Below are positions 6,584 to 39,196 of a DNA stretch of 64,000 nucleotides, piece by piece (position 1 is the first letter of the stretch; every line of letters begins with the position of its first letter). The translations under genes and the position numbers were made by a program. Below the pieces are notes generated by a model, which saw nothing but the letters and a program-made list of their open reading frames with translations, did no database searches and was not told where the DNA came from. The DNA is from a virus (Duplodnaviria > Caudoviricetes): IMG/VR virus record IMGVR_UViG_3300027672_001796; one strand, given 5' to 3'.

Positions 6584-7606
6584 CTAGTCTGCCTTCGGTT
6601 TCACTATTTTACTGAGATTAGTTTTAACTGAATCAGTTGTACCATCAGTATTAATTCTTTGGTCATCATTGTTAACAAACGAAGTAAGTATCTTGTTAGC
6701 CGCCGACCATGCCTGTGTCTTATCATCACTAACCCTACGCCAAACACTCAAGTTCTTTAAGAATAATCTGTGCGGTGAAAAGTCTGTTCTTAGGAAGTAA
6801 TCGCCTTCGTTTGCATCTGCCGGGAATGTTGCGCCACTGCCAACTATAACTGCTCCGTTTGGAGGAGTGCCATCGACATTAGGAAGATAAATTCCAGGTG
6901 CGTCACCTTCTACATACAAATGACCACCAGCTACATAGTCTGCATCATACGGTGTTTCAGCCGCCGCCAATGCTTGAACTTTATCTGATATAGCAATTTC
7001 TGTGCTGTAAGTACTTAATATATTTCGTAAATCGTCAGCACTTTCACCAGTGCCAAGTATATCTCTGTACTCTGGACTGTCTGTTATGTTAGTTAGTTTC
7101 ACTCTCCACAAGTGGGGCCACCATCTTGCATCGTAGCCTTCTGCTGGTCTGCCTGCATCACTAACAACAAAATATCTATTAACGGCTTCACCGCCACCAA
7201 GTAATAAGTCATCTCGTAAATGAGGTAGCTCAACAACATCACCTGCCATTAAACGTCTGCCTAATAAACTAGCTAAGGTATTCATATGGAAAGTCATAAA
7301 CAATGAGTCATTGTTAACAAACAGTCCAAACTGTGTTAAGTCAAACTCTGGATCACCGGGAGTATAACTGCCACGTAATTCGTAGATATCAGTATCATAC
7401 TTCCTGTCTCTGTTTTCTAAAAACAGTACATCTTGTATATACAAGTCTCCTGTTCCGGTACTTGCAGTGGTGTCATCAGTGTATGTTCCTATGTATTTGT
7501 GTACATAGACTCCTGTTCCACCCGCGTTGATATTCTCGGCAATAATTCTATCTTGAAAATCATAGTCGTTTGTTTTGTTCTTGTTCCATAAACTTAATCT
7601 AGGCAT
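6584..7606 (-). CDS. gp14: Neck protein, T4 gp14-like (start revised to ATG at 7606)
   Basis: IQDVLFLENRDRKY, DLTQFGLF and GDVVELPHL motifs; adjacent to the gp15-like gene; TAAATA-ctgct-ATG. Confidence 0.7.
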   Translation of the reverse strand: MPRLSLWNKNKTNDYDFQDRIIAENINAGGTGVYVHKYIGTYTDDTTASTGTGDLYIQDVLFLENRDRKYDTDIYELRGSYTPGDPEFDLTQFGLFVNNDSLFMTFHMNTLASLLGRRLMAGDVVELPHLRDDLLLGGGEAVNRYFVVSDAGRPAEGYDARWWPHLWRVKLTNITDSPEYRDILGTGESADDLRNILSTYSTEIAISDKVQALAAAETPYDADYVAGGHLYVEGDAPGIYLPNVDGTPPNGAVIVGSGATFPADANEGDYFLRTDFSPHRLFLKNLSVWRRVSDDKTQAWSAANKILTSFVNNDDQRINTDGTTDSVKTNLSKIVKPKAD

Positions 7607-33009: not shown

Positions 33010-34128
33010 ATGCAGAAACCATTTGACTTAACAAAGTTCCGAACAGGAATCACGAAAAGTATCGCTGGCATCAGTGCTGGCTTTCATGATCCACAGGATT
33101 GGATATCAACTGGTAACTACACTCTTAACTACCTAATTAGTGGGGACTTCCAAAAGGGAGTTCCTCTAGGCAAAGTAAGTGTATTTGCAGGAGAGTCTGG
33201 TTCAGGTAAATCGTTTATCTGTTCAGGTAACTTAGTGCGTAACGCACAACAACAAGGCTGTCAAGTAGTATTATTTGATAGTGAGAATGCACTAGATGAA
33301 GATTGGCTACAAGCATTAGGCGTTGATACAACTCCTGAGAAATTATTGAAGATTGGCGTCTCAATGATTGATGATGTAGCAAAAACAATTAGTGACTTCG
33401 TAAAAGACTATAAGTCTAACTATGGTGACTTACCATATGCAGAGCAACCTAAATTACTATTCGTAGTGGATAGTTTGGGAATGTTGCTTACACCTACAGA
33501 TGTTGCACAGTTTGAAAAAGGCGACATGAAAGGTGATATGGGTAGAAAGCCTAAGGCATTAACAGCCCTAGTTAGGAATACAGTTAACCAACTAGCACCA
33601 CATCCAATCGGACTTGTTGCAACTAACCACACTTATGCATCGCAAGATATGTTTGACCCTGATGATAAAATCAGTGGCGGACAAGGATTTGTATATGCAT
33701 CAAGTATTGTAGTAGCAATGAAAAAGTTAAAACTTAAAGAAGACGAAGACGGAAATAAAGTATCGACAGTACAAGGTATTAGAGCGGCATGTAAAGTAGT
33801 GAAAACACGTTACAGCAAACCGTTTGAAAGTGTACAGATTAAAATTCCGTATGAATCAGGAATGAATCCATACTCAGGTATTTTAGAATTGCTTGAGCAG
33901 AAAGGAATCGTTGTAAAAACTGGTAATAAACTAGAATACACATCACCTGTTACAGGCGAAGTTATTAAAGAGTTTAGAAAGCAGTGGACTGAAGAGAGAC
34001 TTCAGATAGTAATGGATGAATGGAATCAAATACCTGATGCAAACTATCATGATGATTTTAGTGATTTAGTTGACGATGAAACTTTAGTAGATGAACCTAC
34101 TGTAGAGGAGTTGGCAAATGAATCCTGA
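33010..34128 (+). CDS. uvsX: RecA-like recombinase UvsX
   Basis: AGESGSGKS; FDSENALD; VVDSLGML; TNHTY; ISGGQG. Confidence 0.95.
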   Translation: MQKPFDLTKFRTGITKSIAGISAGFHDPQDWISTGNYTLNYLISGDFQKGVPLGKVSVFAGESGSGKSFICSGNLVRNAQQQGCQVVLFDSENALDEDWLQALGVDTTPEKLLKIGVSMIDDVAKTISDFVKDYKSNYGDLPYAEQPKLLFVVDSLGMLLTPTDVAQFEKGDMKGDMGRKPKALTALVRNTVNQLAPHPIGLVATNHTYASQDMFDPDDKISGGQGFVYASSIVVAMKKLKLKEDEDGNKVSTVQGIRAACKVVKTRYSKPFESVQIKIPYESGMNPYSGILELLEQKGIVVKTGNKLEYTSPVTGEVIKEFRKQWTEERLQIVMDEWNQIPDANYHDDFSDLVDDETLVDEPTVEELANES

Positions 34129-35534: not shown

Positions 35535-36083
35535 ATGACAACTCATGCAATGATTGATATTGAAACATTAGCTACTAAGCCTAATGCTGTTGTATTAACT
35601 GTTGGCGGAGTTAAGTTTAATCCGTATAGTGCAGAAGACCCGCATACTCCATTTAGTGTAAGACTGAATATTGATGAACAAACTGCCAAAGGCAGAGTTA
35701 TCGATCCTAATACTATTGAATGGTGGGGAAAGCAAGATAAAGCAATTCAAGATGAAGCGTTCTCAGATGAGAACAGAGTTTCAGTAATCGACTTTATTGC
35801 AGACCTTAATAAATGGCTAAATGGCACTGAACTTAAATGGGCACAAGGATCTAGATTTGATTATGGTATCCTTGAAGACCTAATTGAGAATAGTTTCGAA
35901 CAACACAAAAATTGGTTCTTTTGGCAAGAAGCTGATAGCAGAACACTAGGACAACTGGTCCCAAGGGATCTGCGTAAAGACGATTCGGGTAATCAAAAGG
36001 ACTTGCACTCAGCACTCGCTGATGCATACAATCAAGCAAAAGCAGTACAAAAAGCATATAAGCATCTCAATATCATCCAATAA
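35535..36083 (+). CDS. DEDDh 3'-5' exonuclease (Rv2179c-like)
   Basis: MIDIETL; WAQGSRFDYGIL; HSALADA. Confidence 0.85.
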   Translation: MTTHAMIDIETLATKPNAVVLTVGGVKFNPYSAEDPHTPFSVRLNIDEQTAKGRVIDPNTIEWWGKQDKAIQDEAFSDENRVSVIDFIADLNKWLNGTELKWAQGSRFDYGILEDLIENSFEQHKNWFFWQEADSRTLGQLVPRDLRKDDSGNQKDLHSALADAYNQAKAVQKAYKHLNIIQ

Positions 36084-36098
36084 TTTACCACTATTTGT

Positions 36099-36136
36099 GG
36101 TAAAAGGTTGACATCACCCCTAAAAGGTAGTATAAT
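36099..36136 (+). promoter_or_regulatory. Early promoter, copy 1
   Basis: GGTAAAAGG-TTGACA-17-TATAAT. Confidence 0.85.
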
Positions 36137-36184
36137 ATATACTTATTAGACAATAAAGGAAAGGAAGAAAAAGCCAATAAAAAC

Positions 36185-36222
36185 GGTAAAAGGTTGACAT
36201 TGGTCCTAGAATTTAGTATAAT
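36185..36222 (+). promoter_or_regulatory. Early promoter, copy 2
   Basis: GGTAAAAGG-TTGACA-17-TATAAT. Confidence 0.85.
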
Positions 36223-36281
36223 ATACATAAGTTAATAAGAAGGGCTTGTTAACAATAATCATAATGTCGGGGATGACTAAT

Positions 36282-37331
36282 ATGACAACAATGAAGAAAA
36301 ACAAACTAAACTATGTAAAGATTAAGGCTGGTACTTACCGTAAAAACGAAATCGTTGATACAGTATTTCCAATTATTAAGCCACTTAACATAGGTAAGAA
36401 AGGTGCGTTCATTACAGTAAACGGTAGTGAAGTAATGGGAGACCAGTTCGCTAGTATAAGAGTACTTATAGAAGATCCAACACAGGATCTAGAATATGTA
36501 ACTCCTAGTGTTTATGCAGAGCAACCAAAAATTGATCTGAAGCCTAAGAAAGAAGAAAATGACGAAGAAGCAATTGAGCGTATCAGAGAACGTTTTGATA
36601 TTCTTGATAGAATGACTCATGCTGTAGCAGAAGGTACAGTACGTGGTATGATTGTTAGTGGTCCTCCAGGTGTTGGTAAATCTTATGGTGTAGAAACTGT
36701 GCTAGAAGATTACGATATGCTTACTGAGGTTGCTGGCAAGCCTGCAAGAACTGAAGTAGTAAAAGGTTCGGTTACTCCAATTGGTTTATTCCAAACACTA
36801 TATAACAATTCAGAAGCAGGTAACATACTTGTATTTGATGACTGTGATAGTGTGTTGTTTGATGAAGTATGTTTGAATATGCTTAAAGCAACTTTGGACT
36901 CAGGTAAGAAAAGAACTATTACTTGGAAGTCAGAATCACAAGCACTTCGTAGAGAAGGTATTCCAGATAGATTTGAATTCAAAGGTGGTTGTATCTTTAT
37001 TACTAACGTAGACTTTGAAAACGTTCGTTCTAAAAAGATTAAGGATCACTTAGCGGCACTTATGTCAAGATGTCACTACTTGGATCTTACAATGAACTCT
37101 ATAAGAGATAAGTTCCTCAGGATTAACCAGATTGTTAAAGATGGTATGCTTGAAGAATACAAGTTTGGTGTAGAAGGTGATAAAGAAATTATTAACTTTA
37201 TGACCACTAACCAAGAAGCTCTTAGAGAGATAAGTTTGAGAATGGTTTTGAAGATATCGGATCTTAGAAAAATGGATCCTGCTAATTGGGAAAAACTTGC
37301 AAGAACTACTTGTATGAAAGGAACAATTTAA
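36282..37331 (+). CDS. AAA+ ATPase (probable start at 36282 after SD GGGGA)
   Basis: GPPGVGKS Walker A; LVFDDCD Walker B; ALMSRC arginine-finger region. Confidence 0.88.
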   Translation: MTTMKKNKLNYVKIKAGTYRKNEIVDTVFPIIKPLNIGKKGAFITVNGSEVMGDQFASIRVLIEDPTQDLEYVTPSVYAEQPKIDLKPKKEENDEEAIERIRERFDILDRMTHAVAEGTVRGMIVSGPPGVGKSYGVETVLEDYDMLTEVAGKPARTEVVKGSVTPIGLFQTLYNNSEAGNILVFDDCDSVLFDEVCLNMLKATLDSGKKRTITWKSESQALRREGIPDRFEFKGGCIFITNVDFENVRSKKIKDHLAALMSRCHYLDLTMNSIRDKFLRINQIVKDGMLEEYKFGVEGDKEIINFMTTNQEALREISLRMVLKISDLRKMDPANWEKLARTTCMKGTI

Positions 37332-37340
37332 TAAGAAACG

Positions 37341-37427
37341 AACTAACAGTTCCCCCGGTGCTCGATTGTTAGTCATCCCCTAAATGGAGCACCACGAAGC
37401 CCGGATCCCCTCCGGGCTTCACCTTTT
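37341..37427 (+). ncRNA. Candidate C-rich small RNA / structured 3' UTR with anti-SD loop
   Basis: Stem ggtgctc/gagcacc encloses ttagtcatcccc, the exact complement of 36269-36280; three TCCCC motifs; ends in a terminator. Confidence 0.65.
37396..37427 (+). terminator. Intrinsic terminator
   Basis: gaagcccgga-tcccc-tccgggcttc followed by acctttt. Confidence 0.85.
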
Positions 37428-37451
37428 GTGTAATTGAGTAATAGAAATTAC

Positions 37452-37479
37452 TTGACTTTGACACAGTAAAGTGTATAAT
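37452..37479 (+). promoter_or_regulatory. Sigma70-like promoter
   Basis: TTGACT-16-TATAAT. Confidence 0.7.
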
Positions 37480-37528
37480 TACTTATTGTTGAAAGACAAA
37501 GATAATAACATTTAAAAAGAGGAGAAGT

Positions 37529-39196
37529 ATGAACAAGATGTTTACTTTTGCCGCCATAATGCTATTCGCATTCCAGGCCCAGGCAGAAAATATAGAAGAA
37601 GTAGTAGTATATGCCCAAGAGGTTAAAACTACAAAAGCAAGTCCGTTAACAAGTACAACTTTATTCGAGGCAATAATGCCTGATAAGACTTGGATGGCAG
37701 GTGGTTACGGAGCAAGTACAATGTTCAGAGAACGTGGTGCTCAATCTGTACATACCGTAGTATATAAAAATGGTGTTCCAGCAAACAACCCAGGCAGTGG
37801 TTGGTATGATTTTGGACACGACATTACTAGTGGCGAAACAGTAAAAGTTATTAGTGGTGCAAACGGAGTTATGTACGGCTCAGGCAGTATAGCTGGAACA
37901 GTACTAATTCAAGACACTATTGATACTAGTGTAACTGCAAGGCTTGGTTCAAACCACCAGCAGTATATTAGTGTTGCCCCTACAAGTTGGTTCCAGTATT
38001 CAGACTTTAGTGTAGAGCAACAAACAAGGAATGATAATACTGAAACAGACAAGTACGAAAACAAGAGTGCTAAAATTATAGCAGACGCCGGCGACTTTAA
38101 GTTTATAGTTAATGCAGTAGATTATGCTTACGATTATGACAACTGTTATACACCAGAGTTCACTCAATCAAACGATTGTTTACAAGACGGTCAAAAAGTT
38201 ACAGTTAGTGTAAGGAACGAATACTTTACTCTAGGTAGAACAGAAGAGAAAGCAGAATATTTTACTGAAGGTGTAAGTACATATCAAAACGAAAGCAGTA
38301 GAGATTATTTCAGAATAGGCGACACTACAAATTTGTCGACACTACTTGAAGTAACATATGGTGTAGATGGTAGCAAAGAACAATACAATGAACATAGCGA
38401 TGATAACTATGGCGTGTTTCTAAGTGTTGATGCACAATTTATTCTAGACTACAACTTTGGAATTAGGTATGGCAACGATGACCAGAATGCATTGCGTTTT
38501 GGAATAGCTAAAGACCAGTTCTATCTTAACGTAGGTACTAGTTTTAGAAAGCCTAACTTGTACGAGCTTTACGGCGACAGTTACGTTGATGCTAATGATG
38601 AGCTAATGCCAGAAGAAGGCACAGGCTATGAGATTGGTTTTGGTGCTTTAAGTTTATTTAGATATGACTTTGAAGAATCAATTGAGTATACTCCTGGCTT
38701 TAATACTATAATGCCTATTGCAAATGCAATTGACGAAAGCGATGATATTATAGAGATGGTAGAACCAGCTAGTAGTACTGATGTGTGGACCAATGCAAGG
38801 TATTACAATGCAGGCAGTTACTCTACACAGGGTGTTAGATTCTCTAATAACTTTGGACCAGTAAGTGTTATGATAAAGTACAACGATTCTGATAAAGCAA
38901 GAGTGGCACAGTACATTACAGTTCTAACATACAAAAAGATGTGGAAAGAAATTGCATACAAAGTAAGGTATGTAGGATCATTTGACAGAACACCTGGTCT
39001 GTATGATACACTTCCAACTGGACAAGAATACTTAGACGACCTTAAGAAGCTAAACTTTTATGCAGTAAAAAAACTTCCTAATAACACTACTATTTCTTTT
39101 ACAGCATTAAACTTAACAAACGAACAAGCAGAGGTTCTTCCTTATTATAATAATAAAGGCAGAGAATTTAACTTGACAATTCAGTACAACTGGTAG
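37529..39196 (+). CDS. TonB-dependent outer-membrane receptor-like protein
   Basis: Signal peptide (AQA|E); TonB-box-like IEEVVVYA; plug motifs NGVPAN and VISGANGVMYGSGSIAGTV; FRKPNLYELY; PEEG..YEIG; C-terminal aromatic beta-signal (IQYNW). Confidence 0.85.
   Translation: MNKMFTFAAIMLFAFQAQAENIEEVVVYAQEVKTTKASPLTSTTLFEAIMPDKTWMAGGYGASTMFRERGAQSVHTVVYKNGVPANNPGSGWYDFGHDITSGETVKVISGANGVMYGSGSIAGTVLIQDTIDTSVTARLGSNHQQYISVAPTSWFQYSDFSVEQQTRNDNTETDKYENKSAKIIADAGDFKFIVNAVDYAYDYDNCYTPEFTQSNDCLQDGQKVTVSVRNEYFTLGRTEEKAEYFTEGVSTYQNESSRDYFRIGDTTNLSTLLEVTYGVDGSKEQYNEHSDDNYGVFLSVDAQFILDYNFGIRYGNDDQNALRFGIAKDQFYLNVGTSFRKPNLYELYGDSYVDANDELMPEEGTGYEIGFGALSLFRYDFEESIEYTPGFNTIMPIANAIDESDDIIEMVEPASSTDVWTNARYYNAGSYSTQGVRFSNNFGPVSVMIKYNDSDKARVAQYITVLTYKKMWKEIAYKVRYVGSFDRTPGLYDTLPTGQEYLDDLKKLNFYAVKKLPNNTTISFTALNLTNEQAEVLPYYNNKGREFNLTIQYNW

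Follow-up and report, generated by a model that had tools for sequence, protein, structure and literature searches.

A candidate icaR-like 5'-3' UTR pairing that would cover the translation start of an early AAA+ ATPase message in marine giant phages

In the hok mRNA of type I toxin-antitoxin systems, fold-back inhibition (fbi/tac) brings the 3' end of the full-length message into pairing with its 5' region, and the molecule is translationally inert. The hok message also adopts alternative local structures, is activated by 3' processing and stands under the control of Sok antisense RNA. Among phages, the early T4 transcripts e, soc and I-TevI contain local hairpins in the 5' region that sequester the Shine-Dalgarno sequence (SD), and in the RNA phages MS2 and Q-beta long-distance interactions link coding regions of a polycistronic genome. 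Pairing between the two untranslated regions (UTRs) of one bacterial mRNA has been described for icaR of Staphylococcus aureus, where pairing of the 3'UTR motif UCCCCUG with the SD of its own message prevents initiation and generates a site for RNase III (PMC3868564; Ruiz de los Mozos et al. 2013), and for hbs of Bacillus subtilis, where a 14-bp pairing of the 5' and 3' UTRs overlaps a site for RNase Y, with an effect on cleavage (PMC5737220; Braun et al. 2017). Section 7 of a 2021 review names only RNAIII/hld, icaR and hbs as cases of same-mRNA 5'-3' UTR interaction and leaves the generality of the phenomenon open (PMC7821165). Our full-text literature search found no phage example of such pairing.

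The initial annotation of the phage locus described here drew its comparison with RNAIII and RsaE; we find the closest precedent in the 5'-3' UTR pairing of S. aureus icaR (PMC3868564). Judging from the sequences of the locus and its relatives, a pairing of the icaR type probably occludes the start site of the mRNA for an early AAA+ ATPase and thereby limits its translation.

The source DNA, referred to below as the window, is 64 kb long and contains the ATPase gene in a compact unit of promoters, leader, reading frame and 3' region with terminator. The unit and its boundaries are made up of the following features:

36108-36136, + strand: upstream early-type sigma-70 promoter (TTGACA-17-TATAAT), 12/12 match to consensus
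36194-36222, + strand: proximal early-type sigma-70 promoter, 12/12 match to consensus
36231-36253, + strand: hairpin in the 5'UTR with a 9-bp stem and an AAGGG loop, from the minimum-free-energy fold; 3 compensatory pairs in 16 relatives
36282-37331, + strand: gene for a 349-aa AAA+ ATPase with T4 NrdC.10/NrdC.11 as relatives (phrog_1250)
37396-37427 (hairpin 37396-37420), + strand: intrinsic terminator with a 10-bp GC-rich stem, a 5-nt loop and a short U tract; 5 compensatory pairs
37452-37479, + strand: promoter of the next gene (TonB-dependent-receptor-like), 11/12 match

The two perfect consensus matches bear out the claim of the initial annotation that two strong early promoters drive the gene, and a promoter in the position of the proximal one is visible in all relatives. 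Taking transcription to start at ~36229, as deduced from the proximal promoter, the leader of the ATPase mRNA comprises ~52 nt. Its hairpin probably acts as a 5' stabiliser and lies outside the pairing; it is conserved, yet missing in clades with short leaders, and no consistent partner for its AAGGG loop was found by eye. At the other end, the 3' region of the gene extends over ~100 nt and closes with the terminator, which has the GC-rich stem-loop, the U tract and the conserved structure of an intrinsic (Rho-independent) terminator, the U tract being short and interrupted (CACCUUUU). No internal terminator or promoter was seen within the unit, and the separate promoter at 37452-37479 marks its end. 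A monocistronic ATPase mRNA transcribed from strong early promoters forms part of the explanation that we consider best.

An early promoter follows directly after the terminator hairpin (37396-37479), an arrangement that we take to be the layout of the promoter-early stem-loop cassettes of T4-type phages. In some distant relatives, no promoter is visible for the gene 3' of the ATPase terminator. A search by sequence found no relative of the 349-aa ATPase with a solved structure. The gene has as neighbours a UvsX-like recombinase (33010-34128, +), a DexA/Rv2179c-like 3'-5' exonuclease (35535-36083, +), a TonB-dependent-receptor-like outer-membrane protein and a UvsW-like helicase. The outer-membrane protein (555 aa; 37529-39196, +) is encoded between the ATPase and the helicase under its own promoter, and has a signal-peptide-like N-terminus and a match to the Plug domain (E 7.5e-07). 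The nearest cultured matches of UvsX are the jumbo myoviruses Phosso, Atu_ph07, XbC2, CBB and GAP32 (60-68% identity), and the phages with the closest UvsX infect Sinorhizobium, Agrobacterium, Xanthomonas, Pectobacterium and Cronobacter. By this closeness, the window belongs to a marine branch of that jumbo-phage group. One related viral contig measures 340 kb (91% complete), DNA of the lineage is common in seawater metagenomes, and megablast of the locus against cultured phages gave no match.

Contigs from RNA libraries of three studies fall only within 36263-37398, two of them running from the coding sequence into the 3' element, and none lies in the flanks 35900-36262 or 37399-37700. These low-depth assembled data, with unmapped ends and possible DNA carry-over, fit a single transcript that includes the element.

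The starting point of the analysis was the complementarity between the two ends of this transcript. Direct reading confirmed that 36269-36280 (GGGGATGACTAA) and 37369-37380 (TTAGTCATCCCC) are exact reverse complements, as the initial annotation had claimed, and that the duplex can be extended to 14 bp with one G:U (36269-36282 with 37367-37380), ending on the A of the ATG at 36282. The two partners and the structures around the second one are as follows:

36269-36282, + strand: target, the translation initiation region (TIR) GGGGAUGACUAAUA, made up of an atypical SD (GGGGA), its spacer and the A of the AUG
37342-37349, + strand: 5' strand of helix P1, ACUAACAG, pairing with 37366-37373
37350-37356, + strand: C-rich linker UUCCCCC, loop 1 of a pseudoknot; UUCCC invariant
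37357-37393, + strand: hairpin P2, GGUGCUC / GAGCACC (37357-63 / 37387-93), with a 23-nt loop carrying the anti-TIR motif
37367-37380, + strand: anti-TIR motif UGUUAGUCAUCCCC, complementary to the TIR, in the P2 loop

Between the TIR (-30..+15) and the 90-nt 3'UTR, uninterrupted Watson-Crick pairing extends over at most 12 nt. In 500 dinucleotide shuffles of the 3'UTR the run averaged 5.8 nt and did not exceed 9, so that 0/500 reached 12 nt. When the 69 ORFs of the window were treated alike, the ATPase gene was the sole outlier, all others showing runs of <=8 nt that are AT-rich. Apart from the two partner sites, the 64 kb contain no exact copy of the 9-mer core GGGGATGAC, and SDs of the GGGG type are rare in the window, where AGGAG/AGGA types prevail. 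The computed duplex energy is -22.2 kcal/mol; opening the two partners costs 2.7 + 3.1, leaving a net -16.4 kcal/mol for the window. The SD lies partly within a weak local hairpin (36266-36277), and in the distant superclade introduced below it is likewise found, by eye, in the loop of a 3-4-bp hairpin. Four in-frame ATGs (at 36264, 36273, 36282 and 36291) are crowded into the 30 nt of 36264-36293. Within the SD region, AUGAC has the look of a duplicate of the start (AUGAC A/U), which may explain a shift of the pairing register from the start codon to the SD.

The hairpin that the initial annotation drew around the antisense segment is present and has undergone compensatory changes: P2 consists of 7 pairs (99.6% paired) with 2 compensatory pairs, or 3 when clade C is included. 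P1 (actaacag/ttgttagt) also has 7 pairs (98.6% paired), one of them fully compensatory (G-C in 24 sequences, A-U in 6). Together with the terminator, both helices are ~99% paired across relatives, with five compensatory pairs in total; a joint alignment of both superclades, which was fitted to the covariance model and is thereby biased towards the structure, gives 3 compensatory pairs for P2 and 5 for the terminator. P1 had been proposed as an alternative stem that would mask part of the antisense segment. The stem exists and covaries; P1 and P2 cross in the topology of an H-type pseudoknot (loops of 7, 2 and 14 nt, each helix supported by covariation), and the two stems are therefore not mutually exclusive. 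By their lengths, the loops would be sterically compatible with simultaneous helices. P1 is limited to the superclade of the window; outside it, as in clade C, a separate AU-rich hairpin is found instead. Since the 5' strand of P1 resembles the target (GACUAA), this strand and the TIR would compete for the UUAG stretch of the anti-TIR motif, and a switch based on this competition is possible.

The TCCCC copies on which the initial annotation had remarked are present at 37351, 37376 and 37406. The third forms the terminator loop, which varies among relatives; we rejected a pairing role for it and do not count it as part of the feature. The linker UUCCC(CC) on the 5' side of P2 is invariant across both superclades (L062, L072, L155 and others) and has no consistent pairing partner; it may serve for tertiary contacts, for protein binding or as a second anti-SD. 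A covariance model built from the window's clade finds a single copy of the element in the window, and also recovers homologues of it from some members of the distant superclade. A further match at 7162-7250 (+; 18.4 bits, E 0.03) has neither a C-rich motif nor a terminator and was discarded as spurious. Rfam gave no match to the + strand of the element at E up to 10, the only overlapping match being NrrF on the - strand with 19.8 bits against a gathering score of 60, and no tRNA or tmRNA was found at the element. An antisense ORF (37065-37376) that starts on the reverse complement of the motif is not a gene, because it is open over 103 aa only in the closest relatives and over 4-55 aa elsewhere. 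A riboswitch or attenuator for the downstream gene was also rejected, since that gene has its own promoter and the motif lies outside the terminator stem.

Two scans of marine viral contigs produced 160 loci with an ATPase 62-98% identical to that of the window, representing 83 distinct TIR/3'UTR combinations, and the protein tree of these loci falls into two superclades. The initial annotation had named a lack of conservation or covariation in homologues as one result that would refute it; the complementarity proved to be conserved, with compensatory changes across clades, in the 83 combinations. All of them keep a run of 6-12 nt, with a mean of 8.83 compared to 7.29 +/- 0.20 (max 7.87) when partners are permuted. 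Within their own clade the runs measure 8.5-9.9 nt, and they drop to 4.2-5.0 nt when partners are swapped between the superclades. On the 3' side, 13 nt of the element (GUUAGUCAUCCCC) are invariant in the 30 distinct sequences of the window's superclade, while the surrounding loop positions vary.

In the window's clade, GGGGAUGAC(UAA) at the SD pairs with GUCAUCCCC. A clade at 65% protein identity has UGUGGGAGG / CCUCCCACA in the same register, with two fully compensatory positions. The other superclade (~62-69% protein identity) has (C)UGUGGGAGG in the SD region and (C)CUCCCACA(G) in the 3'UTR, and alignment of both sides by homology puts its pairing in the register of the window's clade. According to an intermolecular covariation table made with a custom anchoring script, with start codons assigned by a simple SD rule, 24 combinations have U-A and 14 have G-C at the register-aligned position adjoining the UCCC core, with 0 mismatches, and at another position 13 have G-C and 14 have U-A. 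Separate double changes are GUAGGAG / CUCCUAC and GGGAGAAC / GUUCUCCC. The protein tree sets apart, as separate events, L158 (GCUGUAGGAG with CUCCUACAGC), L145 (GUGGGAGAAC with GUUCUCCCAC) and the L090 group (UGUGGGAGA with UCUCCCACA). In L160 an A-to-G change in the 3' motif leaves a U:G wobble, and L054 also has a G:U; these wobbles fit RNA pairing and not the identity of DNA sites.

The register of the pairing shifts among lineages, and the initiation region is always covered. In the basal clade, the invariant 3' motif has as its partner the AUG together with the two codons that follow (GAUGACUAAC). One subclade of the window's superclade pairs both its SD (AAGGGGA) and its AUG region with one contiguous 3' stretch, the spacer being looped out, and a further lineage there has GGAUGAC, or GGAUGGC with a G:U. 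On the protein tree, the SD register arose at least two times from the start-codon register. The contiguous pairing is short in some lineages, with 7 bp in L049 and L129 and 7 including a G:U in L054. The distance of the motif from the stop codon also differs: ~40-50 nt in the window and its superclade, 25-65 nt in part of clade C, and 0-7 nt in 34 distinct combinations from three well-supported subclades of the distant superclade, where the motif has no structured body. Lineages are non-independent, deep covariation derives from few independent splits and the A-versus-C contrast represents one split; read with these limits, the covariation pattern can hardly be accounted for without selection for pairing at the RNA level.

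Distant homologues of the ATPase in T4-like, PA5oct-like and Ackermannviridae phages do not have the feature. In Paride (PA5oct-like), Acinetobacter phage Acj9 and Aeromonas phage phiA8-29, the gene is part of tightly packed operons, runs are only AT-rich or off the SD, and no comparable SD-3' complementarity was found. On the strength of these comparisons, the complementarity is specific to the marine lineage.

The mechanism we propose would operate as follows. The strong early promoters would give rise to a monocistronic ATPase mRNA, in which the structured 3'UTR element and terminator would display the C-rich anti-TIR motif. Once the 3' end is completed, the motif would pair with the SD/start-codon region of its own mRNA or of a sister copy, and the pairing would block 30S binding and so cap the amount of protein per transcript, as in S. 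aureus icaR. As translation begins co-transcriptionally, ~1.1 kb before the 3' element exists, the pairing would act only on finished, ribosome-poor messages. A 14-bp helix within a 23-nt hairpin loop is topologically strained, so that only 8-10 bp would form or P2 would open. In the window's clade, the target-mimicking 5' strand of P1 could keep a portion of the motif bound within a local pseudoknot, and the 3' element could in principle toggle between a self-closed and a TIR-bound form. That the pairing takes place in vivo, represses translation and acts within one molecule is what we infer from the patterns above, as is any switch.

Several other explanations have to be weighed against occlusion of the start site within the message. 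The element could be processed to a ~90-nt 3'UTR-derived small RNA that represses ATPase mRNAs, and perhaps others, in trans. A compact hairpin and terminator with the seed in a loop are typical of trans-acting RNAs, but no promoter-like site exists inside the gene 5' of the element, and many relatives have their motif 0-7 nt after the stop without a structured body. The covariation, which would be the same for action within or between molecules, does not discriminate. A second target did not emerge. A scan for other targets, suggested in the initial annotation, returned nothing convincing: near-matches to GGGGATGAC in the window are not enriched (7, with 4.7 expected), and in the 340-kb relative the 14-mer target with <=2 mismatches was found only at the element and at one site with 2 mismatches. 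We regard a small RNA as unlikely.

The stop-adjacent motifs invite a different idea, a "closed-loop" mRNA in which the 3'UTR motif shuts the start site, only ribosomes at the adjacent stop reopen it, and the message is later locked irreversibly. This is unlikely in our judgement; if true, the message would be translatable only during the ribosome flow that stems from co-transcriptional loading, and would contain a built-in timer that ends the activity of an early phage gene with neither a protein nor a small-RNA regulator. Coupling of the gene to its own termination, with the start closed by default, a ribosome at the stop melting the duplex and freeing the adjacent SD, and a lock when the flow ends, appears quite unlikely. 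The pairing would juxtapose stop and start, and the 34 combinations with the motif 0-7 nt past the stop place it within the footprint of a terminating ribosome; however, the short distance may reflect merely short 3'UTRs, and the motifs of the window and its superclade (~40-50 nt) and of part of clade C (25-65 nt) lie beyond such a ribosome.

Another reading is that the pairing mainly governs decay of the mRNA by protecting it from, or exposing it to, RNase E, RNase III or exonucleases. It has a model in B. subtilis hbs, whose 14-bp 5'/3' UTR interaction modulates RNase Y cleavage (PMC5737220), and the ATPase 5'UTR does contain a conserved stabiliser-like hairpin. The paired segment, however, tracks the SD/start codon in every clade, even when this has moved relative to the 5' end, which points to initiation as the selected target and makes decay as the main function very unlikely. 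That the motifs act as DNA, as an inverted repeat flanking one gene that would serve protein binding or the inversion or recombination of the gene cassette, can practically be dismissed: coordinated change would also be expected if both copies were sites for one protein, but this was rejected on the basis of the wobble pattern (where the copies differ, the changes are transitions compatible with G:U, seen in L054, in L160 and at the ends of the helix in several clades), by position (the left copy is always on the SD/start codon and never on the promoter, includes coding bases in the basal clade, and has no further copies in the window) and by the constant orientation of the gene relative to the promoter in 160/160 loci.

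If occlusion of the start site by the 3'UTR is confirmed, it would extend the mechanism to phages, and probably also to Gram-negative hosts, and would represent an evolutionarily stable way of dosing a gene with very strong promoters. The lineages would then provide variants made by nature, with pairing in the SD or the start-codon register and with stop-adjacent or loop-displayed motifs, for dissecting the competition between pairing and ribosome, and the NrdC.10/11-like ATPase would be flagged as a protein with a dose that matters.

Compared with the described systems, the locus is nearest to icaR: in both, the 3'UTR has a C-rich anti-SD motif with a UCCCC core that complements the message's own SD, and a block of initiation is proposed. 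The ATPase is, in contrast, a phage gene, probably of a Gram-negative marine host, and its sequence is unrelated to icaR. Its motif is situated in a hairpin/pseudoknot before the terminator or adjoins the stop codon, one clade pairs the AUG itself, and its support comes from phylogenetic covariation. The 14-bp ATPase duplex is short for RNase III. With hbs, the locus shares a long-range UTR-UTR pairing of similar length in one small, strongly expressed mRNA, but the hbs pairing is off the SD, whereas the ATPase segment that is paired is the SD or the start codon. It resembles hok in the pairing of the 3' end with the 5' region and in the alternative local structures; the ATPase locus has neither an antisense partner nor a toxin, and no sequence or Rfam similarity to hok. 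RsaE and RNAIII of S. aureus likewise use UCCC-type loop motifs that pair with G-rich SD regions, but these are stand-alone, trans-acting RNAs with many targets, and the only good target found for the ATPase element is its own start site. T4, MS2 and Q-beta also control phage translation by RNA pairing over the ribosome-binding site; the ATPase pairing differs in linking the 3'UTR to the 5'UTR in a monocistronic mRNA of a DNA phage. We know of no report of natural compensatory changes for RNAIII/hld, icaR or hbs. The ATPase locus would thus represent a rare known mechanism, described for very few bacterial genes, with the unusual variants of a start-codon register, stop-adjacent placement and display in a pseudoknot, and it would place the logic of that mechanism, accompanied by natural compensatory changes, in an abundant family of marine giant phages.
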